This document shows positions 1 through 61,745 of a stretch of 64,000 nucleotides of DNA, in pieces. Source of the stretch: Bdellovibrionota bacterium (lineage in GTDB: Bacteria > Bdellovibrionota_B > Oligoflexia > Oligoflexales > JAWKNZ01); the NCBI GenBank assembly GCA_041391425.1, contig JAWKNZ010000013.1, forward strand, positions 436 through 64,435, given 5' to 3'. Within the stretch, counting starts at the first letter, position 1. Each line of letters starts with the position of its first letter. The translations under genes were made by a program, and so were the position numbers. The notes under the pieces were generated by a model. That model saw only the letters and a list, made by a program, of their open reading frames with translations, searched no databases and was not told the DNA's origin.

Positions 1-338
1 CGCTGATAATCCCAACTAAAGAGAGCCTTGCTGCTATAACACGGACAGCAAACTTGCAGAATGATGTTCGTTTTGAGTTAAGAAAAGCAAAATTAGCCGA
101 AAGGCTCACAAAATTCTATTTGATGGGCAGAAACTGTTCATTCGAAAAGCTTACTTTTAATGATTTGAGACATTCGTACGTGATACACATGCTCGGGCAA
201 AGCGTTTCACTATCCATCATATCTAAATGGATTGGGGATTCGATCAGCACATGTGAGAAATATTATTCAGGATATGAAATTTCGGATGAGGCAAGTGCAG
301 CAATATACGAAAGGCTAAAGTCAAACGCCTATCAATGA
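1..338 (+). CDS. tyrosine recombinase/integrase, C-terminal part (5' end lies outside the window)
   Basis: The reading frame is open from the window edge. The C-terminal catalytic region has ...NDLRHSYVIHMLG..., ...WIGDS... and a terminal ...EKYYSGY (Tyr). It lies directly beside a tRNA-Leu fragment. Confidence 0.7.
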   Translation, partial: LIIPTKESLAAITRTANLQNDVRFELRKAKLAERLTKFYLMGRNCSFEKLTFNDLRHSYVIHMLGQSVSLSIISKWIGDSISTCEKYYSGYEISDEASAAIYERLKSNAYQ

Positions 339-532
339 GCTTCTAAGTCTTCTTTGAGATAGGCGAGGTATTCAGTTTTCTCTGCTTCGGATAATCCCGC
401 CAAGATCTTCTCATTTGCTCTAACTAATTTTTCAAATGTCATTTCGGGGTAGATTTTTCTTACCTCAGAGAGTTCTACCAAAGCTTGCTTGTAAGCTTCG
501 ATGTGACGAACGTTGTCTTGAGGTTTTTCCAT
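332..532 (-). CDS. hypothetical small acidic helical protein (66 aa)
   Basis: ORF only, with no recognisable motif. It sits between the integrase 3' end and the tRNA fragment. Confidence 0.3.
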   Translation of the reverse strand: MEKPQDNVRHIEAYKQALVELSEVRKIYPEMTFEKLVRANEKILAGLSEAEKTEYLAYLKEDLEAH

Positions 533-554: not shown

Positions 555-618
555 TGGTACCAGTGGCCGGACTCGAACCGGCACATCCTTGCGGACGGTG
601 GATTTTGAATCCACAGCG
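555..618 (-). pseudogene. 3' portion of a tRNA-Leu(CAA): anticodon arm, variable arm, T arm, acceptor 3' strand and CCA. The 5' part is missing.
   Basis: The reverse complement reads CGCTGTGGATTCAAAATCCACCGTCCGCAAGGATGTGCCGGTTCGAGTCCGGCCACTGGTACCA. It has a GTGGA/TCCAC anticodon stem, loop TTCAAAA (anticodon CAA) and a GGTTCGAGTCC T loop. No matching D arm or 5' acceptor strand lies upstream. Confidence 0.75.
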
Positions 619-876
619 TTTACTATGCATGGATCTATTTCTAAGGTGGAATTAGTTGGGGTAACTTATTACAATAATTAACCTTAGAAAGATCAAGCCA
701 ACTAGTAAAATCAATCGCAAGCAAAATTTGTTAGCGTTAGACTGACCTTCTGAAAGCCTTGAAAATACGTTGAACGGATCAAGGTTTTGTTACTTATTTG
801 TTACTCTAATATATTTCTTTTCTTTGTTACTTTTAATGGAGTAACAAATAAAAGTTTTTTAGGAAGTGACTTTTAT

Positions 877-1641
877 TTACGTCGAAAGTTTCAAGGTTTT
901 CAACCACAAGTTTATAGCATTAAAGACTGCTTCCAAGTCACTAGGGATATCTTTATACATTTTGGAATGCCTGATCCAAGGGCCATTTAGATTATCAACC
1001 CATTCGATATCAAGAGTGTATGGAATCTTTCTTTCATCCATTAACTTTGCGAGGATTTTCATATCAATCGAAAAGCTCGATTTGGCAATTCGCCAAAGAT
1101 CATCAAAATCTTTCATTCTTGTATTTCCAGCTTTAAATCGATGGGCTGCCTGGACTTTATCAGCTACGATATTTTCAATACTGGCTGATATATAAAGTTC
1201 ACCGCTGATAGTCGACCTAACCTTAGCAATGTTTGTTGGCAATGCATATACGATATCCAAGGAAAATTGATTCACTTGTCCTGCTGCTGTTTTGTAGCCA
1301 ATCACAACCGCCGCTGCAGAATATGTCGCATTATCAATTTCTTTGAACTCTATAATATTGAAATCTATTTCGGAGTGGTAGTTGCCGACTTGATCAAGTG
1401 CTTTCCTGACAGTCTCATGGGATGTCATTTTGGCTGTGACTAAATCCAGGTCAATTGTTTGCCTTGGTGTTCTGATATAGTGCCAAAGAAGATTGCCACC
1501 CTTGAAAATAAAGTCATCCGATAGGGCCGATAAAGCATCTAAAAATTTCAGCATCATAAATCTTGAAAATGCTTGCCTACCGTGCTGTCCATTCTCTCTT
1601 TTCCAATTGTTGAACTGCTTATTTAGCGAAATAGCTACCAT
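877..1641 (-). CDS. AbiEii/AbiGii-family nucleotidyltransferase toxin (type IV TA / abortive infection)
   Basis: 254 aa. The N-terminal ...FIFKGGNLLWHYIRTPRQTIDLDLV... matches the KGG...R.T.D.D signature of the DUF1814/AbiEii family. It is separated by 1 nt from the upstream AbiEi-like gene. Confidence 0.8.
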   Translation of the reverse strand: MVAISLNKQFNNWKRENGQHGRQAFSRFMMLKFLDALSALSDDFIFKGGNLLWHYIRTPRQTIDLDLVTAKMTSHETVRKALDQVGNYHSEIDFNIIEFKEIDNATYSAAAVVIGYKTAAGQVNQFSLDIVYALPTNIAKVRSTISGELYISASIENIVADKVQAAHRFKAGNTRMKDFDDLWRIAKSSFSIDMKILAKLMDERKIPYTLDIEWVDNLNGPWIRHSKMYKDIPSDLEAVFNAINLWLKTLKLST

Positions 1642-1642
1642 T

Positions 1643-2245
1643 TCAGATCTCCATTTGAAGCAGATTCAAAATTTCTTGTCCCATCTTTTTATTTATCTTC
1701 AAAATTAAGTTAAATTGTTTTCCCGGATTTTCCCTATCTAAATAGAATTCAGCGAATTTTCTAATGGCGTAGAAATAGGAGTCCAAACCCTTATAGTATC
1801 TATATGCCTCAAACAGGGTTCTTTCCGGAGAGTAAACTCGTATGTCAAACGGTATTCCCTTACTTTCAAAACTTCTTTCTTCAACATTTGTTATCTTCCT
1901 GGGAACAACTCTGTGCACATTCATCAGGTCGTTTTTAAGGTTCATAGAATTAGGGATATCAACGTCGATTTTGTTGATGTAATCCAGGCCCAAATCGTAC
2001 AATGATAGGACCGTTGGTCCTGACACGACACACTGGGGATAGTAATGTTTTACAATCGCAAAATAGGCGGTTCCCTCATCAACGGTCGGTAAACAAAAAT
2101 ATCCCATGCCGTCAGGTGAGACTTTTTGTAACTCTCCTTTATCGACCAACCTGTAAACACCAGTCTTGTGACCCACGATCTCGACTAGCTCAGGGAGGCT
2201 TATCACGTGTCTAGCTTTTAATAGATTTGAAATCCTTTTATCCAT
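1643..2245 (-). CDS. AbiEi-family antitoxin/transcriptional regulator
   Basis: 200 aa. It has an N-terminal winged-helix-like segment ...ISLPELVEIVGHKTGVYRLVDKGELQKV...GYFCLP typical of AbiEi. It lies immediately upstream of the AbiEii gene. Confidence 0.7.
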   Translation of the reverse strand: MDKRISNLLKARHVISLPELVEIVGHKTGVYRLVDKGELQKVSPDGMGYFCLPTVDEGTAYFAIVKHYYPQCVVSGPTVLSLYDLGLDYINKIDVDIPNSMNLKNDLMNVHRVVPRKITNVEERSFESKGIPFDIRVYSPERTLFEAYRYYKGLDSYFYAIRKFAEFYLDRENPGKQFNLILKINKKMGQEILNLLQMEI

Positions 2246-2246
2246 G

Positions 2247-2288
2247 TTGCTATTTTGTCATAAAATATCAATTTTGTCAAAATAGCAA
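2247..2288. promoter_or_regulatory. inverted repeat (candidate AbiEi operator) abutting the abiEi start codon
   Basis: TTGCTATTTTGTCA (2247-2260) and TGTCAAAATAGCAA (2275-2288) are reverse complements at 13 of 14 positions. The repeat is located 2-43 nt upstream of the minus-strand ATG at 2245. Confidence 0.4.
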
Positions 2289-2766
2289 CAAGTAGCTTGT
2301 GTGCTATAGAAAGATATAATTTATTAAAAATATTACAATTTATTCTGCGGACTTGGCCATAGAGTCCAACAATTCAACTATAGTGAATTTAATACGCTAT
2401 TTCTCAGCATTATATGCTAGCAATTTAGAGGCAATTGTTCTTCACGGTGCTACGGGTAGCAAAAAATCGTAAAATTGCCAATCAACAACATCTAGAAATA
2501 GTTCTGGAATCTTAATAGATTCGAGTTTTTGAACATTACTGCATACCTTGTTTTGGAACTGAGTTGACCTACAAAATAAACTTTGTCTTTATCAGGATTA
2601 TTATAATAAGGGCAGAGTTCATCACTCTATCGACGGCAAAATGCCAGCACAGATGGCTGGTGAAATGAATGTTCCGATAGTGAAGTTGCAAAATTATAAG
2701 TTTCAATCTTATTGTCTTGGCGCCTTTAAAATACCAATTGCGATATAAATATCAATTCGCACCCAA

Positions 2767-4281
2767 GGTACATTCCAATACAATCTGGACTTTTTGATTT
2801 GTGTTAACGAATTCTACTGATACGGTTTAGGTGTAGAGTTTAAAGTAAAAGTTTGATGTCAATTTATGTCGCACAAAGAGGCATTGGAATTCTGCTACGA
2901 CAAGCATTTGTTACAATTGAGGGATTGATGAAAACTGATACGATTCTTAATTGCTGCTCTTGATTTTTCCTTGAGTTCTGCAGCTATTTCTTCACTCCAT
3001 AGTCCGCGGTACATTTCTTCTGGCGTAGCTCCTTTAAATGCTGAATGTGGCATTTTAGAATTTTGCTCAGAATAGTAAAAATCAGTGAGCTGTCTGACAG
3101 TATTGATATTTTGCAGAGGAACATTATAGAGGCAGTTGTATTTTAGGCTCCTAAAATTTGCCTCTATGATAGAATTAGAGAATTTTACATCGATTTGAGC
3201 ATTGGTTAAAGTCAGTTTTCCTAGGTTAACAAGCTTAGATACAAATTGATTGAAATTTTCACTACCGCCATCCACAAAGACCTCAGGCAGTATCTTTGGG
3301 TTTGAGTTGCTTGCCTTTTCCAAAGCCTCAAGAAGAAGATCTTTTGTTTGGCATCCAGTTTTGTGCTCACTTACTTTCCAAGCAATGGTGTATCGTGAAT
3401 AATTGTCGACGACACTTTGTACATATGCTTTGCCACCTTCAAGTAGATTGACCTCAGTGACGTCGACATGCCAAATTTCGTTTGGAGCGTTTGCTCGTAC
3501 TCCTATTTTAGGTTTTGTTGGATAAACCCTTCTTCTAGGTCGTTTCCACCCATGTCGCTTAACCATTCTGGACCAAGTCGAGGGAGAACATATTAGTTGG
3601 CCAGAACGTTTAATTTTCTTTGCTAGTGTAGTTAAGGGATAGTGTGCGTAGTCTGCTGAAGTAACAAAATCTTTCATTTTGGTAAGTTCAGCTGCAGTGA
3701 GTTTCATTGGATTAAATTTAGGACACGTTTTGTAATCATTTAGATTACATGACAGATCTCTCTTGACCCAACTATGATAACGGCTTGATGATAGAGAAAT
3801 TGTGGCCAAAGATTTCTTAAGCCCAGTTATGCTTGCTGTTTTCTTTATCATTTTGAGTACCAGTTCTTTGTCTGCGGCGCTCGGTAAACGCTGCCACTTG
3901 ATGGAAAATCCGAAGATATCATTGATAGACTTGTAAAGCTCAAGGAGAGCAGTCAGTTGCTTACATTCAAGCTGAAGTTTATTGATGTCTTTGATAAGTT
4001 CAGTCTTACTGACGTCGAGGTTTTCAAAAGTAACAACTTTTCGTGGTTTATTTTTGGTCCATGCAGCAGCAGTCGACACAGGGACACCAAATCCCTTTAT
4101 GAGTTGATAGGGATCAGTGCTAGCGAATGCTAGCTCTTTTAATCTATGATCGTACAAAGTTTTCATAATTTATAGAGTCGCAAATGAAAGGAAAAAACCT
4201 TAGCTTCCATCTGATAATCTTGTTGTTCTGGTAGGTTACGGATAACCGAAGTTAAAAGTCCAGATTGTTTTGGAATGTACC
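2767..4281 (-). mobile_element. insertion sequence with a single rve-type DDE transposase (IS481/IS3-superfamily-like), about 1515 bp
   Basis: Terminal inverted repeats are GGTACATTCCAATACAATCTGGACTTTT (2767-2794) and, reverse-complemented, 4254-4281 GGTACATTCCAAAACAATCTGGACTTTT (27/28 identical). They enclose the transposase ORF. Confidence 0.8.
2895..4166 (-). CDS. DDE transposase (integrase-core/rve domain)
   Basis: 423 aa. The DDE triad context is ...IWHVDVTEV..., ...VFVDGGSENFN..., ...IEANFRSLKYN..., and DNYSRYTIAW is typical of rve-domain transposases. Confidence 0.85.
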   Translation of the reverse strand: MKTLYDHRLKELAFASTDPYQLIKGFGVPVSTAAAWTKNKPRKVVTFENLDVSKTELIKDINKLQLECKQLTALLELYKSINDIFGFSIKWQRLPSAADKELVLKMIKKTASITGLKKSLATISLSSSRYHSWVKRDLSCNLNDYKTCPKFNPMKLTAAELTKMKDFVTSADYAHYPLTTLAKKIKRSGQLICSPSTWSRMVKRHGWKRPRRRVYPTKPKIGVRANAPNEIWHVDVTEVNLLEGGKAYVQSVVDNYSRYTIAWKVSEHKTGCQTKDLLLEALEKASNSNPKILPEVFVDGGSENFNQFVSKLVNLGKLTLTNAQIDVKFSNSIIEANFRSLKYNCLYNVPLQNINTVRQLTDFYYSEQNSKMPHSAFKGATPEEMYRGLWSEEIAAELKEKSRAAIKNRISFHQSLNCNKCLS

Positions 4282-4464
4282 TTTGCTCCATTTACGCGTC
4301 ATGATATGAGGCGTGGCTTCAACTTAGCAGCCAAGGAAGCAGGTATGTCTTTGGACGATCGTGCCTTGATTCTTGGTCATGGTAGGGAAGTCAACGAAGC
4401 TCATTATTGTGGCAAGCCTCAATTGGATGCGGATAAAATTTCGGAGATTTTAAATGCGATGTGA
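4282..4464 (+). pseudogene. tyrosine integrase C-terminal remnant, truncated at its 5' side by the IS
   Basis: ...FTRHDMRRGFNLAAKEAGMSLDDRALILGHGREVNEAHY... carries the R, H-x-x-R, LGH and Tyr elements. The frame starts exactly at the IS right end, and no N-terminal ORF of 60 aa or more exists left of the IS (2250-2766). Confidence 0.7.
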
Positions 4465-4485
4465 ACTGTATTTGGGGGATACAAA

Positions 4486-4572
4486 TGGTGCCTCCGGTGA
4501 GAATCGAACTCACACTCCGTTGCCAGAACCGGATTTTGAATCCGGCGCGTCTACCAATTCCGCCACAGAGGC
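4486..4572 (-). tRNA. tRNA-Leu(CAA), intact, CCA encoded
   Basis: The reverse complement is GCCTCTGTGGCGGAATTGGTAGACGCGCCGGATTCAAAATCCGGTTCTGGCAACGGAGTGTGAGTTCGATTCTCACCGGAGGCACCA. The acceptor stem is GCCTCTG/CGGAGGC, the anticodon loop is TTCAAAA, and there is a long variable arm and a GTTCGATTC T loop. Confidence 0.9.
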
Positions 4573-4700
4573 TTGTTACTATGCTGTTACTGTCGTCTTT
4601 ATTCTTGCTTTTTCAACCTCAGGACCTTAGTCGCTAAGGTATCGAAATGTCAAGAAGTTTCTGCTTTTCTTGCCTAATTCCTCTGAAATAGACGCGTAGT

Positions 4701-4740
4701 ATTTTGAATCCACTGCGTCTACCGATTTCGCCACCTCGGC
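4701..4740 (-). pseudogene. 5' half of a second tRNA-Leu(CAA), ending inside the anticodon loop
   Basis: The reverse complement is GCCGAGGTGGCGAAATCGGTAGACGCAGTGGATTCAAAAT (acceptor 5' strand, D arm, anticodon stem 5' strand and loop). The sequence after CAAAAT is unrelated to a tRNA. Confidence 0.75.
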
Positions 4741-5062
4741 TTAGTTGTACATATCATGCACTGTGGCAGTAGCTTATAACCATGCGTCTCTTCCATCAAA
4801 TCTGGAATCTGCCTTTAAGAAACCAAAATAACTACCATATCTGATTAGTCACCCAACCGATTCTGCCTATTTAATGTAACAGGGAAGTTATCGTGGAGAT
4901 CAAAAAATAAGCTACACAATCCATTGTTTTTATTTATAAATTGCTTCCTTGTCAAGAGAAAATAAAATTTGGCGATAGTTGGAATTGCATAGAGGAAATG
5001 TAGAGGAAAAAGAGAGAGCAAGGCCAATACAGCGGACGACGCATTTACAAGGAGATGTGCGT

Positions 5063-5419
5063 ATGGTCACTTCTATGCGGCGGCAAGACCGAAGGGTGCA
5101 GCCAAGGATTGTGACGTTGAATTCAGATGAGATTACAGGGCTTTTAGTGGCTGAATCGAACTTTGAACGCCAACCATTTATTTTATGTGATGTTTCTGAA
5201 ACTGGTATCGGTATATGGACGCCAGAGAAGCTGCCTATGGATAGTTCCATCAAAGTTATTCTGGGAGCTGAGTTTGGTAATATCACCGTAAGTTGCCAAG
5301 TAATGTGGTGTAGTGAAGATCCCGAACGCAAAGGGTTTAACTCTGGCATGTGTGTGAAAGGGGAAGTTCACAGCTATATTTACAAGTACATCAAGGAAAA
5401 ATGTGACCAAGGTGCTTAG
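5063..5419 (+). CDS. PilZ-domain protein (c-di-GMP receptor)
   Basis: It has the RRQDRR (RxxxR) and DVSETGIG (D/NxSxxG) PilZ motifs. The ATG at 5063 is preceded by GGAG at 5051. The ORF track extends the frame to a TTG at 4979. Confidence 0.75.
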   Translation: MVTSMRRQDRRVQPRIVTLNSDEITGLLVAESNFERQPFILCDVSETGIGIWTPEKLPMDSSIKVILGAEFGNITVSCQVMWCSEDPERKGFNSGMCVKGEVHSYIYKYIKEKCDQGA

Positions 5420-5538
5420 TGTGGCATAGGTGTTAGCCCTGCATATTATTCCCTCACAGTGTTTTTGTCTTTAGATTAAAATTTATAATAGCCCCATGTC
5501 TAATTCGATATTTTCAATTTCGTAAAAGGAAATCGATT

Positions 5539-6858
5539 ATGCAGATTGACGTATCATTGCTAGCAAATGCGATGATTTCCAATGAGTTTATCTTGCTATG
5601 GAGTTTATCTATCGTTGCCTACGCTTTCTTCTGGATTTTTAAGATGATTTTCAGATCTAAAGCGCTTATAGGGGAGTTTAAAGGTGCAATGCATTTGCTT
5701 GCTCAACTTAAAATATTGGAAGGTAGTGATAAAAAGTTTAAGAAAAAGTTAGATGTCTTTTTAAAGCTTCCATTAATAGCGCCATTTGCCGATCGGCTAT
5801 TTGTTAGCGATAGGTGTGATAGCCTTATTCTCGACTCACAGGTCATTAGTGCTATAAATGAAGAAAGCATCATTAGCCCAAGGTTGGATAAAAACGCCTA
5901 TCAAAGTATCGGCAGTCATCTAAGTGGTATGGGGGTTTTAGGTACATTTATTGGCCTTTCGGCAAGTATATATTTGGCCCGTAAGGGTCTTATGGGAAGC
6001 AACTTTTTGCAGATGAGAGATTCTTTAGATCAGCTTTTGGGTGGAGCTGCCTTGGCTTTTTGGACATCAATGGTAGGGGTAGGCTGTTCGCTTCTATACA
6101 ATAGAGTGGAAATAGCGGTCTTTAGTACGTTGAGGTATAAGTTACAAACTCTTATTGAAAGCATCGCAACGATAGGCAAGCGTTTTTCGCAGGAAGAGGT
6201 TTCCATAAACCAGTTAAATGCCAATACGAGTCAATTGCGCTATCTTGAACAGATAGCGGGATCATTGGAGGCACTTAACAATAAACAACAAAAAATTCAG
6301 GAAGAAATATTACGTGAAGTAGTCAATGATTTTCGCAATGGATTAGCAGAAGGTGCGCCGCAGGAGATGAAAGCGATAGCCGATAATTGCCTTAGAATCT
6401 TATCATCGATCAAGGCAAATTTAGGTGAGATGCAAGATTCTAATAGTTATTTGGTGGAAACAAGTAAGAAAATTGGCGAGGCTATTGAAGAGCCTTTACA
6501 AAAGGCCGCAGGCGTGTTCCATACAAAAATAATTGATACTATTGAACGAATGGAACGGGCATTGGATGGAGCTACTTCGCAAATCGGCAAAAATATGATG
6601 ACTGAATCTGTAGCTGCAACACAGCAGATACAAGAGCCTATTATACAACTGGGACAAATTGTACATAAGTTAACGGATAAGACTAGGCGTGCGACCGATG
6701 ATTGGACGGATGCTATGATATCTATGGAAAGGCTAGTCAGAATGCTTGACAAAGAGCGCAAGCATTTTGCCAATGGCAATGAAAAAAAAGCCAGCCCTGA
6801 TTTCGAACATCCCGTCATAAATTTCAACCGTGAAAATTTTACAGACGATAAATTTTAA
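5539..6858 (+). CDS. MotA/TolQ/ExbB-family proton-channel protein with a long C-terminal helical tail (ZorA-like architecture)
   Basis: 439 aa. TM1 spans about residues 16-38. The channel motifs are ...SGMGVLGTFIGLSASIYLA... and ...GGAALAFWTSMVGVGCSLLYNRVE.... A roughly 245-aa charged, Q/E/K-rich tail follows. AAAGGA lies before the ATG. Confidence 0.7.
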   Translation: MQIDVSLLANAMISNEFILLWSLSIVAYAFFWIFKMIFRSKALIGEFKGAMHLLAQLKILEGSDKKFKKKLDVFLKLPLIAPFADRLFVSDRCDSLILDSQVISAINEESIISPRLDKNAYQSIGSHLSGMGVLGTFIGLSASIYLARKGLMGSNFLQMRDSLDQLLGGAALAFWTSMVGVGCSLLYNRVEIAVFSTLRYKLQTLIESIATIGKRFSQEEVSINQLNANTSQLRYLEQIAGSLEALNNKQQKIQEEILREVVNDFRNGLAEGAPQEMKAIADNCLRILSSIKANLGEMQDSNSYLVETSKKIGEAIEEPLQKAAGVFHTKIIDTIERMERALDGATSQIGKNMMTESVAATQQIQEPIIQLGQIVHKLTDKTRRATDDWTDAMISMERLVRMLDKERKHFANGNEKKASPDFEHPVINFNRENFTDDKF

Positions 6859-6898
6859 TGTTTTAAGCTGTTTTTAGATTTTTAGAATATGGGCAATC

Positions 6899-7717
6899 AT
6901 GCGTAATCATAACTATGAAAAAAAACAAAATTTATGGATGTCTTTATGCGATATTTTAGCAGCCATGATTTTTGTTTTTCTAATTGTTTTAGCAGTGTTT
7001 TGTATTCAGTATGAAAGTGATCAAGCTCATTTTAAGAATACTAAAGAAATCTTACAAAGTTCCATGAACACCCGGAAAGAAATTTTAACTAAACTGCAAG
7101 AAGCGTTGCGATCTTACGGGTTGAACTCGGAAGTCATTTTACAGGCCGGAATTCTCAGGCTTAATAATGAAATTATTTCATTCCCTGCATCTGAAGCAAA
7201 TCCTAATACAATCAACCTTCAGAATATTGGTGTGTTGTCCAAAATTATGTCAGAAGTCCTTCCTTGCTATGCGAAGCAAAAGCCTGCTGTTTTAACCACT
7301 GAGGAGTTGCCAATATGGTGTGATGTGGGCTTAAAAAATATTGGAGCATCAGTTTCTGTAAATAACTGTTCAAATACCCGTAGCGTAAATATTGAAACCA
7401 TTATGATAGAAGGGCATACCGATCCAACACCTGTTAAAAAAACAGCATCATATCCTGATAACTTCGCTTTGTCGGCGATGAGAGCTTCAAATATTTGGAA
7501 ACTATTAAAGGCTTGCCAGCCGAATTTAGCTGAACTTTATAATGAAAATAACAATAAGATCTTTGGAGTGAGTGGCTATGCATATCTGCGCCCGGCACAA
7601 AAAAATCCGAACGATCCCCGAAATAGGCGTATTGATGTGCGCTTTGTTATGGAGCAACCCAAAGAAGCCTTTATAAATCTTTCGAAACGTCTGTTAGGAC
7701 CGCATCAGCAATTTTAG
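6899..7717 (+). CDS. MotB/OmpA-family protein (ZorB-like): N-terminal TM with conserved Asp plus C-terminal OmpA-like peptidoglycan-binding domain
   Basis: The TM segment ...LWMSLCDILAAMIFVFLIVL... carries an Asp at a MotB-like position. The C terminus reads ...IEGHTDPTP...NFALSAMRASNIWKLL...NRRIDVRFVM. Confidence 0.75.
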   Translation: MRNHNYEKKQNLWMSLCDILAAMIFVFLIVLAVFCIQYESDQAHFKNTKEILQSSMNTRKEILTKLQEALRSYGLNSEVILQAGILRLNNEIISFPASEANPNTINLQNIGVLSKIMSEVLPCYAKQKPAVLTTEELPIWCDVGLKNIGASVSVNNCSNTRSVNIETIMIEGHTDPTPVKKTASYPDNFALSAMRASNIWKLLKACQPNLAELYNENNNKIFGVSGYAYLRPAQKNPNDPRNRRIDVRFVMEQPKEAFINLSKRLLGPHQQF

Positions 7718-15125: not shown

Positions 15126-15254
15126 ATCTGCAGTTGGTAGTTTCTATATACGAATCTTTGGAGAAACTATAGTCGAGTCAGGTGGGTTCGTCTACTACAT
15201 TGTCATAACTGAATAATTTATATGTTTAGGACGGAAGTTTTGTACAGGGTTCTT

Positions 15255-15438
15255 CTAGGGCGTGTTGACGTTTCATTTCCTACTACGAGCCAAACCCTTG
15301 AGTCACAACGTTGTCATGATTTCAAAAATTATCCTCAATGTACATCTAGTACACCTCCGGTAATTTTTGAAACCCTTCCTAGCTGCGACTTTCAAGTATT
15401 TTTCTCTCGCTACGAAAATGAAACGTCAACACGCCCTA
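15255..15438. mobile_element. MITE-like hairpin element, copy 1 of 3 (about 185 bp)
   Basis: It runs CTAGGGCGTGTTGACGTTTCATTTCC...CGAAAATGAAACGTCAACACGCCCTA. The terminal inverted repeats span more than 20 bp. It is nearly identical to 23607-23790 and 28569-28753. Confidence 0.8.
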
Positions 15439-23477: not shown

Positions 23478-23606
23478 GATTATTACCAAATTGACTGTTT
23501 ATCAGATTCGTATCGCATCTAACCTTTAACGATAGTAGCAGTTTTTTGCTTGAGGTTCAGCTGAAACTTAGTAATTTGTGCTGTGGCTTATTATTCCAAT
23601 ATTAAT

Positions 23607-23790
23607 CTAGGGCGTGTTGACGTTTCATTTCCTACTACGAGCCAAACCCTTGAGTCACAACGTTGTCAGGGTTTCAAAAATTATCCTCAATGTACATCTA
23701 GTACACCTCCGGTAATTTTTGAAACCCTTCCTAGCTGCGACTTTCAAGTATTTGTCTCTCGCTACGAAAATGAAACGTCAACACGCCTAG
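23607..23790. mobile_element. MITE-like hairpin element, copy 2 of 3
   Basis: It has the same sequence as 28569-28753 except for the right terminus (ACACGCCTAG versus ACACGCCCTAG). Confidence 0.8.
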
Positions 23791-26162: not shown

Positions 26163-28106
26163 TTACAAGCTTCGGCTAAGAATCAACTTTATTGATGTTG
26201 AGCCTATTTTCAAATTTGGGATAGTAATAATACCGTCTATATCAGCTTTTACTTCACCGCTGGTGTCTCCATAAGACCATTTAATTGTCTCATATGGTAA
26301 TGTGATAAACTTCTTCGTTCTGCGGATCGTTACGTCTGCTACCACTGGTAATGCTCCTATATAACCTTCTCCAACAACAGGCAGATTTTCATCTATCATT
26401 TTAGCTGGAGGATTCGTTCTTATAAAAATTGGCATTTCCAGGTGTATATAATCTTCAATTATGTTATTGCTATCCCAAGATAAAAACCTATTTTTTGCTC
26501 CTCTAAGATCATTAGATATAAATTCACCTGATTGCATGTCATATACAGGCGGCTTATTGTCTAAAGAGCTATTGGAAAATGCAGGGAAGGGTTTATCACG
26601 AGAAAAATATGCTTCCTCTGGTAAGGAGCCTGTCCACCCATCTGGTAACTTTGGATCAGCCACACCATGGCCACCTTGGTCCCAAAAAACTCTATGCCCA
26701 ATTTTATATTTCTGTAATGTTTGTACCCAGCTATTATTAGTAATTGGGCTAGCTGTACTTATATGATGGAATTTAATAGTTTGATCTTGCACACCGTTAT
26801 ACGTTTGAAAAGGGATATTTCTTATCGATTTGTCATCTCTTAAGGCACGTGTTATATCATAGCGATCCCATATATTCATTCCGCCATCATCCAAAAGTTG
26901 CATTGATCTAGGGCCCCAATATTTTTCTAGAGCATACTTATGTCCTTCTTGTGCTAAGCTCATAGAAGTCATACCAACAACAGCACCAACTTCAGCAAGA
27001 TGATAACCATATCTAATTGCGAAGAAAATGGAGCCTGATCCCCCCATTGATGCACCAGATATTTTCACTCGATCTCGATCTACTCCGGGGAATGTTCGTG
27101 TCACCCAATCCAACAAGTGCAGAATACGTCGTTGAGATGTATTTAGTACTATTGTATCGGGTGTTGGTGTATTTGGATATTTTTCATGCTGTCCAGTCCA
27201 CCATCCCACATAAGGTTCTGATGGCCCTATTCCAAATTGGTTACCATTTCCATTTCCATATGTTGGAATGCCTCCACTACCATGAAGAGTAATCGATAGT
27301 GGAAGTTTGTTTGTGATAGAGGCAGCATCAGGAACGATAACATTCATTTCTATTGAGCGGCCTGCTTGCTCAGATGTATCAAGAAAATTATCGGTTATCA
27401 TGTTTACTCGGTAAAGCTTTGCTTTCCAAATTTCCTCAACGCTAATAATGCTTGGATCTGGAGGAGTGATCGTATCTAAAATATCAATCATAATGTTCTT
27501 TTTGTGTGGTTGTCCATTATCAAAAATATTAACATCGACTGAATAAGCTTTACCCCCTTGTGTAAAATCTGGGTTAAGTATTAGTATTTTATTAAATTCA
27601 TCAAATTCACTTCCTGCTGGAAGTCCATCAAAAAATATACGAGAAGTTTCTTTCGCTTTAACTTTGATTACAAGACGTTCTTTCTCTTTTATTGATATTT
27701 TGGGAATGGAGTCGGCTAATAAATCGATTAATGTTGTTGGCTTTTCATCTGTTACCGGTTTTGGAGCAGGTTCTGTTGGAGGATTTTCTTCTGTAACTGG
27801 TGTATCTTCTGTAACTGGTGTATCTTCTGTAACTGGTGTATCTTCTGTAACTGGTTTATCTTCTGTAACTGGTTTATCTTCTGTAACTGGTGTATCTGCA
27901 GTTGTTTGAGAATTATTTTGTTTTGCTTGTGTAATGCTCTGATCCATTATTTGAGAATCAGTTTGAGCCTTTACAGTATCTGCTGTTTTTGGGTTTGTTA
28001 TGTTATCTCCTCTATTATTTATTTCCTCAGAGGAGTTGTAGGAAGAGCACGACAAATAAATAAAGTATAAAAGGCAACCTGCTTTTTTTACATGATTAAG
28101 TGGCAT
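26163..28106 (-). CDS. lipoprotein alpha/beta-hydrolase (esterase) with an N-terminal PVTED(K/T) tandem-repeat linker
   Basis: It has lipobox YLSC, ...SITLHGSGG..., and the nucleophile elbow ...ISGASMGGSG... (GxSxG). Seven consecutive PVTE(D/E)x hexapeptides are present. Confidence 0.7.
   Translation of the reverse strand: MPLNHVKKAGCLLYFIYLSCSSYNSSEEINNRGDNITNPKTADTVKAQTDSQIMDQSITQAKQNNSQTTADTPVTEDKPVTEDKPVTEDTPVTEDTPVTEDTPVTEENPPTEPAPKPVTDEKPTTLIDLLADSIPKISIKEKERLVIKVKAKETSRIFFDGLPAGSEFDEFNKILILNPDFTQGGKAYSVDVNIFDNGQPHKKNIMIDILDTITPPDPSIISVEEIWKAKLYRVNMITDNFLDTSEQAGRSIEMNVIVPDAASITNKLPLSITLHGSGGIPTYGNGNGNQFGIGPSEPYVGWWTGQHEKYPNTPTPDTIVLNTSQRRILHLLDWVTRTFPGVDRDRVKISGASMGGSGSIFFAIRYGYHLAEVGAVVGMTSMSLAQEGHKYALEKYWGPRSMQLLDDGGMNIWDRYDITRALRDDKSIRNIPFQTYNGVQDQTIKFHHISTASPITNNSWVQTLQKYKIGHRVFWDQGGHGVADPKLPDGWTGSLPEEAYFSRDKPFPAFSNSSLDNKPPVYDMQSGEFISNDLRGAKNRFLSWDSNNIIEDYIHLEMPIFIRTNPPAKMIDENLPVVGEGYIGALPVVADVTIRRTKKFITLPYETIKWSYGDTSGEVKADIDGIITIPNLKIGSTSIKLILSRSL
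27787..27897. repeat. 18-bp in-frame tandem repeat (about 6 units) inside the esterase gene
   Basis: The unit TCTTCTGTAACTGGTGTA/TTTA is repeated head to tail and encodes the PVTEDT/PVTEDK units on the minus strand. Confidence 0.85.
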
Positions 28107-28568
28107 TTTTAGACACCTTAAGCTTAAAATTTATGAAATCGGATAAAAGAAATCCGCGCGTTCAAGAATTACAGATCGGTAAATTCTTAAAGAATCTTTA
28201 AGAATTTTGAAATTATAATAAATTGGTATTAATTATAGAACGTTATAATAATTTGAGTCAGTGTGCCAATCTTTGTGTGTCAGGAAAACTTGTTTGTCTC
28301 TCTCAATGCAATCGAGAGTAACATGATGAAGCGTGAACGCTACAATAATGCTATCAAAAAGCTGTAGGGGTTGACACTTGAGGTGTTTTGTCCGGGTGTG
28401 CGTAGTCAAAAGCACACTAGACGGCAGCTATCTTGCCCACCAAAGCATCCTCCACTAGAATGGTGACAGGCAATCTAATGTGTGATTATATATCCAGTTG
28501 ATACTATCTATCGCCATTTGGTGGGATAATAAAAAGATAAATTTAAGATATTGTTAAACAGCAGCTTT

Positions 28569-28753
28569 CTAGGGCGTGTTGACGTTTCATTTCCTACTAC
28601 GAGCCAAACCCTTGAGTCACAACGTTGTCAGGGTTTCAAAAATTATCCTCAATGTACATCTAGTACACCTCCGGTAATTTTTGAAACCCTTCCTAGCTGC
28701 GACTTTCAAGTATTTGTCTCTCGCTACGAAAATGAAACGTCAACACGCCCTAG
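28569..28753. mobile_element. MITE-like hairpin element, copy 3 of 3
   Basis: CTAGGGCGTGTTGACGTTTCATTTCC...GAAAATGAAACGTCAACACGCCCTAG. It lies 58 nt downstream of the MotA-like gene stop. Confidence 0.8.
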
Positions 28754-47606: not shown

Positions 47607-48878
47607 TTATCGATAGTTATGGCATTCCAAGTGACTACTTTGACTCTGAGGTAATTCGTATTGGGTACAGGCTTCATCTAAGCTATCATCCTCTTCGCTT
47701 TCATCTATGATGACTTCGGCATCGCCTGAGCAGTCCCAAGCCTCATCACCAGAGAAGCTTAGATCTTCCTGCTCGCTTTCGTTGGCTGGAGGAGTTGGTA
47801 AATCTTGTTCTTTTCCTGCAACTTTAGGTATCCAGGGCGAGCTTGCATCAATGGCCCCCCCTCCACTCCAGCCTTGTTCATAACTAGTGCTGCCGTCTTT
47901 TAAAAGAAATGCACCAGCACCAATAGCAAGGTTTTTAAGATTGTAGGTGCTGCCATCAACATTTTTATCTACTAACTCGAAAAACGCCATGATTTGATCA
48001 GGATCACTTTTGGTGGTTTGGGTTGCAAATCCCAGAAGGGCTATGTTTTCATCACTTTGAATAACTTTGTATTTATTATAGGAGACGTCGGTGCCGTCAC
48101 TATTAAAATCATTGCTATAGGTTTGAACCATGGTTTTAAGACCAACATACTTTCCTTCACTATTAACCTTTCCAGTCACGACAGTCCTTGATGTGTAAGA
48201 TATGCGTTGGGGGCCACTATCATCAACGCCATTGGCTCTTTTGGTGAGGATTGTCACGTTGTTGTCATCATCAATTGCTTTGCGTATATAATGAGTTTGT
48301 TTACCTTCTTCACAAGAGTGAAAAATGAATTCCACAACTTTATCATTTTTTTCTGTTATTTTTATTTTGAATCTATCAACCTCTTCTCCATCTTCTTCTA
48401 TGGATATGATATGTTCATCTCCATCGATGAAGTCTGTAGATATTTCGTTCATCCCTAGAAAAGTACGAAAATCGCAAAGCTGATAATCGGCAGAGGCAGC
48501 TTCTTGTAATATTCCACGCATACGGTTTACCATTTCACAAGAGCCGTAGCTTGCATTTTGTACCGAATCAAAATAAGTACTTTCAGTATTTGAGCCAATG
48601 GAAACTCCTTGCTGTTCAGTGGCCAATAAATCTAGTGAAATATCTAGGGTTCCAGCTGGACTATCAAAGCTTTGTTCTTCAGTATCGCCATCTAATTGTA
48701 AGACCGGATCAGTTACATTGGGTAAGTTGCTTAACTCGCTGATAGCTAAAGTGCCTGGAGTTGAACCTATTGTGGAAGATGAGTTGCCGTCATCGGTAGT
48801 TTCATCAGATTTTTTTTCATCGCATGAAATGCTAAATACTAGAATACCGATTATGAATATTTTTTTAAAATAGTTCAT
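47607..48878 (-). CDS. hypothetical acidic lipoprotein (423 aa)
   Basis: It has lipobox FSISC and D/E-rich termini. No family could be assigned. Confidence 0.5.
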   Translation of the reverse strand: MNYFKKIFIIGILVFSISCDEKKSDETTDDGNSSSTIGSTPGTLAISELSNLPNVTDPVLQLDGDTEEQSFDSPAGTLDISLDLLATEQQGVSIGSNTESTYFDSVQNASYGSCEMVNRMRGILQEAASADYQLCDFRTFLGMNEISTDFIDGDEHIISIEEDGEEVDRFKIKITEKNDKVVEFIFHSCEEGKQTHYIRKAIDDDNNVTILTKRANGVDDSGPQRISYTSRTVVTGKVNSEGKYVGLKTMVQTYSNDFNSDGTDVSYNKYKVIQSDENIALLGFATQTTKSDPDQIMAFFELVDKNVDGSTYNLKNLAIGAGAFLLKDGSTSYEQGWSGGGAIDASSPWIPKVAGKEQDLPTPPANESEQEDLSFSGDEAWDCSGDAEVIIDESEEDDSLDEACTQYELPQSQSSHLECHNYR

Positions 48879-61421: not shown

Positions 61422-61498
61422 GTATGACAACTGGCAGTGGGATTTCTTGCTAAGGAGTAGCGCATGGTTTTCTACGAGATGCTTCGCATACGCTCAGC

Positions 61499-61659
61499 AT
61501 GACGGTTGTTTGCTCTTGGTGTGACGGTTGTTTGCTCTTGGTGTGAGGGTTGTTTGCTCTTGGTGTGAGGGTTGTTTGCTCTTGGTGTGAGGGTTGTTTG
61601 CTCTTGGTGTGAGGGTTGTTTGCTCTTGGTGTGAGGGTTGTTTGTTCTTGGTGTGACGG
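61499..61659. repeat. 22-bp perfect-register tandem repeat, about 7.3 units, intergenic
   Basis: The unit is GTGTGA(C/G)GGTTGTTTGCTCTTG. The first two units and the last partial unit carry C, and the five units between them carry G. One unit carries GTTTGTTC. Confidence 0.9.
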
Positions 61660-61745
61660 TATGATAGTTTTTGGCTAGGTGATCTTTTCGTCCCGGTATT
61701 GTGGGGATTATGATTGGCCTGAGTTGATAATTATGTGGCTATATT

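Follow-up and report, generated by a model that had tools for sequence, protein, structure and literature searches.

We report on a small genomic island in a 64,000-nucleotide (64-kb) stretch of contig JAWKNZ010000013.1, called the window below, from an uncultured member of the Bdellovibrionota. Two fragments of leucine transfer RNA (tRNA) genes with the anticodon CAA, tRNA-Leu(CAA), bracket this island, and a different, complete tRNA-Leu(CAA) gene lies between them. Judging from the arrangement of these sequences, positions 619-4700 probably represent a decayed element of ~4.08 kb, element Y, that entered a tRNA-Leu(CAA) gene at its anticodon loop, left this target unrepaired and brought along a cognate tRNA.

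The 5' half of the split gene (minus strand, 4740 to 4701) reads GCCGAGG TG GCGAAATCGGTAGACGC A GTGGA TTCAAAA T. It corresponds to tRNA positions 1-39, with acceptor strand GCCGAGG, anticodon-stem strand GTGGA and the full loop TTCAAAA followed by T; according to the alignment, its tRNA identity is gone after TTCAAAAT, i.e. after AAAAT. The 3' piece (minus strand, 618 to 555) reads CGC T GTGGA TTCAAAA TCCAC CGTCCGCAAGGATGT GCCGG TTCGAGT CCGGC CACTGGT A CCA and covers tRNA-Leu(CAA) positions ~24-76, through the long variable arm to the CCA end. Neither ARAGORN nor Rfam (E<=10) reports a tRNA in the 5' half, Rfam assigns 21.1 bits (E=0.76, model positions 10-63) to the 3' piece, and there is no ARAGORN tRNA call at either junction of 619-4700. 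The two pieces share a direct repeat (602-618 and 4701-4717) with 16 of 17 positions identical. At <=3 mismatches, the window contains this repeat just at both sites and in the arm of the intact tRNA (3 mismatches); shuffled windows gave a mean of 0.22 matches, and three matches were reached in 0 of 100 shuffles. Both pieces stop precisely at the anticodon loop and their overlap is exactly the arm-plus-loop segment. An earlier reading of this DNA, made from its letters alone (the sequence-only reading), had already located both pieces at these positions, recognized them as tRNA-Leu(CAA) parts and counted the same 16 of 17 matches; all of this is confirmed.

The intact tRNA-Leu(CAA) gene (4486-4572, minus strand) is separated from the 5' half by a spacer of 128 bp (4573-4700, minus strand). 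ARAGORN, a check proposed along with the sequence-only reading, reports it as the one tRNA-Leu(CAA) in the window; its Rfam score is 60.3 bits, and its minimum free energy fold shows a 7-bp acceptor stem (z -3.3). The acceptor stem is composed of GCCTCTG/CGGAGGC and the anticodon stem of CCGGA/TCCGG. These stems pair with neither fragment: TCCAC remains unpaired with CCGGA, and CACTGGT forms with GCCTCTG 4 Watson-Crick pairs and 1 G-U pair. Common to the intact tRNA and the 3' piece are only 13 nt (GGATTCAAAATCC). The core of the carried tRNA differs at 3 of 17 positions, having the CCGGA rather than the GTGGA stem, and this divergent stem may protect the carried allele against targeting by the element's own integrase. 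The first 40 nt of the carried tRNA equal the split 5' half of another locus, L136, at 40 of 40 positions, so that carried and targeted tRNAs appear to be drawn from the same pool.

Tyrosine recombinases customarily act on core sites with a 13-7-13 geometry. The resident site can be written in this layout as TAGACGCAGTGGA, TTCAAAA (the anticodon loop) and TCCACCGTCCGCA. The proposed attachment site attL lies on the minus strand within the 5' half, with left arm B at 4721 to 4709 (TAGACGCAGTGGA) and the overlap at 4708 to 4702. It is followed by the proposed element-side core arm C' (4689-4701, minus strand; TACTACGCGTCTA), whose outer 7 bp are a perfect inverted copy of TAGACGC of arm B; the reverse complement of B and C' are identical at 9 of 13 positions overall and at 7 of 7 outer ones. 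At the opposite end, the segment 555-622 (minus strand) contains the 3' tRNA part together with the proposed attR, composed of C (622 to 610, TAAACGCTGTGGA), the overlap (609 to 603) and B' (602 to 590). On the left side of the loop, the resemblance of the 3' piece to a tRNA is limited to 13 bp (TAAACGCTGTGGA versus TAGACGCAGTGGA, 11/13) and does not extend beyond them, and this stretch looks like a core mimic of the element's own site, attP, rather than a gene remnant. The element site would consist of TAAACGCTGTGGA, TTCAAAA and TACTACGCGTCTA, with the left arm mimicking the tRNA at those 11 of 13 positions and a non-tRNA right arm.

Further support comes from the motif TGTTAC-N5-TGTTAC (<=1 mismatch), which occurs just twice on both strands of the 64 kb, at 788 and 4574. 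The pair at 4574-4590 (TGTTACTATGCTGTTAC) immediately precedes the intact tRNA and is ~115 bp distant from one core. The pair at 788-804 (TGTTACTTATTTGTTAC) belongs to four TGTTAC copies at 788-846 (plus strand) and lies ~170 bp from the other core. As this pair is unique to the two ends, it links both of them to one element. The pairs may serve as arm-type integrase sites on both attP arms, or else as the promoter of the element tRNA. In the loci L125, L127 and L136, introduced below, a TGTTAC pair is found directly upstream of the integrase-adjacent tRNA and none upstream of the split 5' halves, which argues that the intact tRNA and its upstream region belong to the element. GTAACA/TGTTAC as a general tRNA promoter of this lineage is doubtful, being absent upstream of the split (native) halves.

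The remains of the integrase itself, int_Y, are found beside the intact tRNA. They comprise the C-terminal 59 codons plus stop of a tyrosine integrase (4285-4464, plus strand), with the motifs RHD..R, LGH and HY; the tail is convergent with the tRNA and ends 21 bp from its 3' end. The tail starts exactly at the end of an insertion sequence (IS) of 1519 bp (2765-4283, minus strand), which is bounded by 30-bp inverted repeats (2765-2794 and 4254-4283) and carries a transposase gene at 2895-4166. The transposase matches the Pfam rve domain and is IS3-like (NCBIfam IS3-family 123.8 bits, below the cut-off of 160). There is no target duplication around the IS and no integrase N-terminal part left of it, which suggests that the IS came with a deletion; a surviving integrase N-terminus left of the IS was rejected by frame translation. 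A 423-amino-acid open reading frame (ORF) at 47607-48878, considered as a second copy of the IS, was likewise rejected, having no similarity to it.

The same architecture recurs elsewhere. A 5' half that breaks off immediately behind TTCAAAA(T), a spacer of 115-175 bp and then a different intact tRNA-Leu(CAA) were found in 4 other independent loci, and 2 of these 4 (L125/L126 and L136) possess the same integrase tail. Homologues of the int_Y tail, 66-87% identical, adjoin tRNA-Leu(CAA) in four contig groups: L125/L126, L127, L128 and L136. L125/L126 and L136 share the cut position of the 5' half (...TTCAAAAT|), and a different intact tRNA-Leu(CAA) follows ~125-130 bp downstream. After the break, L136, L125 and L028 share N5-G(C/T/A)GTC(T/A)A with the window, and L125/L126 and L136 have the inverted GNGTCTA. 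The scar can be written as the gapped pattern GGTAGAYGC-N3-GGATTCAAAAT-N5-GNGTCWA. Candidate 5' halves in L007 and L118 proved to be false positives of a motif screen. L028/L115 belongs to an unrelated organism of higher G+C content; here two stacked 5' halves precede the intact gene, which is followed by a type I restriction-modification island. Repeated units composed of upstream region and 5' half are present in L028 (~155 bp) and L125 (~65 bp).

The most complete example is L084. On this single contig, a spacer of 175 bp separates a 5' half from a different intact tRNA-Leu(CAA), behind which follow 2 kb of cargo, then a 3' half and finally a convergent integrase. Here the two halves pair at 7 of 7 acceptor and 5 of 5 anticodon-stem positions, and when joined they fold as a cloverleaf; the 5' half forms just 4 of 7 acceptor pairs with the 3' half of the intact tRNA. 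In its tail, the L084 integrase shares 65% identity with the integrase of L002, which is a tRNA-Leu(CAA) element of the standard kind. L002 (1-8846) is an 8.8-kb IMG/VR contig with a tyrosine integrase and with replication-initiator-like and Zot-like ORFs, inovirus-like as judged by eye only. It is bounded by a 67-bp repeat that takes in tRNA-Leu(CAA) from its anticodon stem through CCA and 7 further nt, i.e. a standard restore-type attP, and the acceptor strand of this repeat is CACTGGT, as in the 3' piece of the window.

Some further observations were made in these loci. L125 (5850-5939; L126 3555-3644) contains, besides the loop-cut half, two more 5' tRNA-Leu pieces (GCCTCTGTGGCGGAATTGGT...) broken in the D-loop, and these are parts of the ~65-bp tandem unit that ends ...TGCA(T/C)GCGCATTTCAT. 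The 199-amino-acid ORF preceding the L125 integrase tail was considered as the remaining integrase and rejected, since its N-terminus resembles a signal peptide (by eye) and an integrase domain is absent. The homologue closest to the tail (87%) is located in L124 (10001-10273), a contig of 920 kb, where no tRNA-Leu(CAA) adjoins it; its surroundings include IS elements, a HepT/MNT pair, a reverse transcriptase and a serine recombinase. At a distance of 4.5 kb from this homologue, there is a tRNA-Leu(TAA) preceded by TGTTACA repeats. The whole integrase family accounts for 36 matches, many of which are short tails, in 1.84 billion representatives. Its full-length members have 428-467 amino acids and a Pfam Phage_integrase domain above threshold, and they adjoin FtsK/SpoIIIE-like and Replic_Relax (relaxase-like) genes.

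The sequence-only reading had described the two pieces of the window as two halves of a tRNA, and this part of it found no support. As it had itself pointed out, the acceptor strands GCCGAGG and CACTGGT form 3 Watson-Crick and 2 G-U pairs with 2 mismatches, i.e. 5 of 7 positions are paired. A metagenome scan with a 23-mer holding the arm (GACGCAGTGGATTCAAAATCCAC) provided matches in at least 120 contigs, and 111 tRNAs were parsed from the matches listed. In 106 of these 111 true tRNA-Leu(CAA) genes the acceptor is paired 7/7. When halves are cross-paired at random, 5/7 is the commonest value (30%) and 7/7 is reached in 4.7%; the pairing seen in the window is thus at random level. The 3' piece equals the 3' half of a GCCAGTG-acceptor tRNA of L062 at 40 of 43 positions, its closest intact match among the matches listed. 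The CACTGGT end is also present in the real tRNAs of L001 and L003, so that it is a genuine 3' strand of GCCAGTG tRNA-Leu genes (L001, L003, L062) and the idea of a decayed CCTCGGC was rejected. These data indicate that the 5' and 3' pieces did not belong to one and the same gene, and the caveat of the sequence-only reading that the halves might derive from different events was correct. Its broader proposal of attL/attR junctions stands in part: an element in the anticodon loop with a replacement tRNA is supported by the junctions, the TGTTAC pairs, the recurrence and L084, and a single gene of origin is not.

The mismatch of the halves is the first of several points that speak against element Y as we describe it. 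It calls for at least one extra, unobserved event, and a chimera of the joined 5' and 3' pieces does not fold as a cloverleaf. The shared 17 bp represent a generic tRNA-Leu(CAA) arm, found in at least 120 metagenome contigs, so the repeat alone is no proof of a single-gene origin; the sequence-only reading had named generic conservation among the arms of this genome as an objection to itself. The other side of this objection is that the intact tRNA lying between the pieces has a different arm, which means that the genome does not merely reuse one arm. We infer the specificity of the integrase from a gene represented by a 59-codon tail only, and base composition shows no contrast between the island and its flanks. 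In L127 and L128, the integrase tail and the tRNA are accompanied by no 5' half within the available flank. Contigs with full-length members of the family show other arrangements: in L134 and L135, the integrase is accompanied by no more of a tRNA than a tip of ~6-9 nt, and in L129 the integrase P0015 (452 amino acids) lies beside a region (2347-2553) with a degenerate tRNA-Leu-like sequence that has the loop TTGAAAA, mismatched stems and no ARAGORN call. Viral contigs gave zero matches for the attL/attP signature. No empty site, circular junction or close relative was found in the genome and contig indexes searched, which do not include this genome; an exact 44-mer holding the 5' half and the anticodon arm has 0 matches in 185,579 species genomes. 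Of side interest, neither the int_Y tail nor the 5' half nor the body of the 3' piece had matches in viral contigs, the tRNA-like sequence of L129 is preceded by two ACGCAACAA repeats with the 3' end of a real tRNA 87 nt upstream, and five Logan contigs all end at this degenerate locus.

The course of events that would best accommodate these data is as follows. Element Y would have inserted via its tyrosine integrase at the anticodon loop of the resident tRNA-Leu(CAA), with strand exchange in or at the 7-nt loop. The attP of Y, predicted as ...GCATAGTAAACGCTGTGGATTCAAAATACTACGCGTCTA..., would have contained the left-arm mimic only and no tRNA 3' half, and hence neither junction would be a gene. 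The corresponding circular junction is predicted to read ...GCATAGTAAACGC[T/A]GTGGATTCAAAATACTACGCGTCTA.... The cognate tRNA situated 128 bp inside attL would have taken over the function, and the host would now rely on this island copy. Later insertion of the IS and the adjacent deletion would have removed ~370 integrase codons and frozen the island, with the AbiEi/AbiEii pair described below as surviving cargo of Y. Two options are conceivable for the mismatched halves. Y may have entered a tRNA already made hybrid by a neighbouring element X, which would have supplied the 3' half, or a later recombination between the repeated cores may have lost an intermediate piece. If the gene with the GCCGAGG acceptor was the native target, its own 3' half would end ...CCTCGGCACCA and would be expected at the far end of X.

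Three other explanations were weighed. In the first, which we regard as unlikely, the locus would be a canonical tandem array: the intact tRNA would be native and regenerated by a standard island, the 3' piece would be the displaced junction of element X, and the 5' piece an unrelated leftover (a truncated duplicate gene or a deletion scar). The order of a tRNA 3' end followed by a convergent integrase, the usual attL layout, is indeed seen twice (4486/4464 and 555/338), and Islander-type arrays are common, with 125 tandems among 3919 islands (PMC4383910). In two of the related loci, L127 and L128, the integrase tail adjoins a tRNA and the visible flank lacks a 5' half, and a standard element for tRNA-Leu(CAA), with the att repeat from the anticodon stem to CCA, does exist in L002. 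However, the 3' piece is incompatible with the stems of the intact tRNA (TCCAC/CCGGA, CACTGGT/GCCTCTG), and the loop-boundary 5' cuts and inverted GNGTCTA of five independent loci would be left unexplained. The TGTTAC pair travels with the integrase family across hosts of differing tRNAs and is missing upstream of the split halves. Finally, the perfect halves of L084 bracket a different intact tRNA.

It is still less probable that the fragments are recombinationally unrelated, the repeat representing conserved arms of pseudogene debris and 619-4700 not being one element. The frequency of the arm in metagenome contigs, with 56 acceptor-stem pairs among the 111 parsed tRNAs, the acceptor pairing at random level and the mosaic interior of IS, possible transposase scrap and AbiE genes would all suit this view. 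Against it, both fragments end at the loop and overlap by exactly the arm plus loop, the tRNA-like stretch of 13 bp on the left of the 3' piece is a mimic and not a gene remnant, the unique TGTTAC pair is present at both ends, the intact tRNA in between has a different arm, and the architecture recurs in other loci. A last scenario, in which the 5' half and spacer come from a 5'-restoring island whose body was lost (the 5'-fragment class, 159 of the 3919 Islander islands; PMC4383910) or from a tandem duplication of promoter plus 5' half, as the repeated units of L028 and L125 might suggest, is very improbable, since the distance from 5' half to intact tRNA is only 115-175 bp everywhere with mobile genes always on the 3' side, the 5' half of L084 pairs with the distal 3' half at 7/7 and with that of the intact tRNA at 4/7, and duplication leaves identical breakpoints in unrelated hosts unexplained.

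Returning to element Y, its interior contains two adjacent genes on the minus strand that make up an AbiE abortive-infection (type IV toxin-antitoxin) pair. The AbiEii nucleotidyltransferase toxin is encoded at 877-1641 (Pfam AbiEii 1.2e-19, 71.7 bits, cut-off 22.5; PADLOC 2.5e-24) and an AbiEi-like antitoxin/regulator at 1643-2245 (PADLOC AbiEi 2.2e-17). A possible C-terminal scrap of a second transposase (2590-2751, plus strand), recognized from its translation (...YNKGRVHHSIDGKMPAQ...), has a weak rve_3 match (E=0.051). Between the repeats there are no phage structural or lysis genes; AbiE, the IS and the possible transposase scrap are the only other contents. The inventory given by the sequence-only reading, i.e. 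the AbiE pair, an IS, an integrase remnant and a distinct complete tRNA-Leu(CAA), was thus reproduced with Pfam, PADLOC and ARAGORN.

The same reading had warned of a second element next to the island, and rightly so. Element X (1-532) adjoins the 3' piece and is cut by the window edge; it contains an ORF end at 3-338 (plus strand) and a 66-amino-acid ORF at 332-532 (minus strand). The former is a weak but plausible C-terminus of a tyrosine recombinase, with 16.7 bits in Pfam and with the RHxx and final Y motifs present; it has no homologues in any collection searched. For a 439-amino-acid flank protein, the next relative is just 34% identical. On the chromosomal side of the 5' half, an ORF with a PilZ domain (4979-5419) is followed by a ZorA-like MotA/ExbB protein (5539-6858; PADLOC ZorA, 6e-16) and a ZorB-like protein (6899-7717; ZorB1, 3.6e-56), with no ZorC/D/E partner among the adjacent ORFs checked. 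This flank of the island (4979-7717) is itself a possible defence locus. At 4775-4790 (minus strand), roughly 40 bp upstream of the 5' half, GAGACGCATGG resembles, by eye, the D-loop/D-stem segment TAGACGCAGTGG of the tRNA minus one base, which could reflect either another degenerate scar or chance. More distant parts of the window contain other repeats. A 186-bp repeat, similar to miniature inverted-repeat transposable elements, is present in three copies (15253-15438, 23605-23790 and 28567-28752) that are 96-100% identical and have perfect 24-bp terminal inverted repeats (CTAGGGCGTGTTGACGTTTCATTT). Approximately 9 tandem copies of a 22-bp unit (TGAGGGTTGTTTGCTCTTGGTG) form an intergenic array at 61478-61682, after a 1024-amino-acid ORF. 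An 18-bp tandem repeat at 27744-27920 is situated within a 647-amino-acid ORF (26163-28106, minus strand) and would encode a repetitive peptide stretch.

The locus and its metagenomic counterparts suggest that this strategy produces recognizable scars, namely a 5' tRNA half that breaks off at the anticodon loop and, ~120-180 bp downstream of it, a different intact copy. Software that defines an island by one intact gene together with one matching fragment would overlook these islands or place their borders wrongly, and tRNA annotators may miscount such fragments. If the host indeed relies on the tRNA of the island, it would be easier to understand that a small AbiE defence island persists after loss of its integrase. 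More tentatively, a rare integrase family of Bdellovibrionota-like and marine bacteria might drive serial replacement of tRNA-Leu(CAA) alleles by non-phage islands, each of them cutting the current gene at its loop and putting its own copy in place. If true, a stack of 5' halves would build up upstream (two in L028; one loop-cut and two D-loop-broken in L125), with 3' halves on the downstream side. The host would moreover become island-dependent, so that integrase-dead defence islands could not be lost, and alleles of the tRNA would circulate horizontally on islands, the allele split in L136 being the one carried in the window.

A comparable strategy, tRNA-dependent lysogeny, was described in Fionnbharth, LeBron, Gaia and other actinobacteriophages (Guerrero-Bustamante & Hatfull, mBio 2024, PMC10865867). 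In these phages, attP and the attB within the tRNA gene share only 8-17 bp, the tRNA is not rebuilt, and the cognate phage tRNA is needed for survival of the lysogen; Gaia targets tRNA-Leu-CAA with an 8-bp core and has its own tRNA adjoining int (PMC10865867). The island shares with them a tyrosine-family integrase (here a tail, with full-length relatives passing the Pfam threshold), a putative attachment site in a tRNA gene with breaks at the anticodon loop, a short core (17 bp, 16/17), the lack of a functional tRNA at either junction, and an intact tRNA of the same anticodon inside the repeats next to the integrase tail. In contrast to these phages, its junction fragments do not come from one functional gene, although those of L084 do. 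It is also not a recognizable phage (AbiE and an IS, no phage genes), it resides in an uncultured Bdellovibrionota host, it is served by a different, rare integrase family, and it is dead, its integrase having been destroyed.

Temperate phages of Rhizobium leguminosarum related to vTRX32-1 recognize a 12-bp motif in the anticodon region of tRNA-Leu and interrupt the gene (PMC8631192). They carry a full tRNA-Leu without the motif, for which the authors suggest replacement of function and a block of super-integration (PMC8631192). The carried tRNA of the island similarly departs from the core, at 3 of 17 positions. Unlike the island, the vTRX32-1-like phages are podovirus-like and use another anticodon (motif CAGATTTAGGTT, not the CAA loop), and neither the inverted arm of a 13-7-13 site nor TGTTAC pairs are described for them (PMC8631192).

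Canonical tRNA-gene islands (Reiter 1989; Williams 2002; Islander, PMC4383910, with its anticodon-centred 'A' class) resemble the island of the window by a tyrosine integrase beside the tRNA 3' end, a crossover centred on the anticodon loop, tRNA fragments at the ends and tandem arrays at one tRNA. Among the 3919 Islander islands, 3760 have a 3' fragment and 159 a 5' fragment (PMC4383910). In canonical islands, however, the gene is regenerated from a partial tRNA copy brought by the island, which results in one intact gene and one matching displaced fragment. In the window neither junction is a gene, 5' and 3' fragments are both present, the intact gene is wholly inside, and no displaced fragment repeats a part of this same intact gene beyond GGATTCAAAATCC, the stems being incompatible. 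The 2024 study of actinobacteriophages asked how frequent the strategy is beyond that group (PMC10865867). Our observations suggest that the same logic is used by non-phage islands of distant, mostly uncultured bacteria. By this comparison, the strategy would be one already published for phages, carried here by what appears to be a non-phage island beside a second integrase-bearing element.

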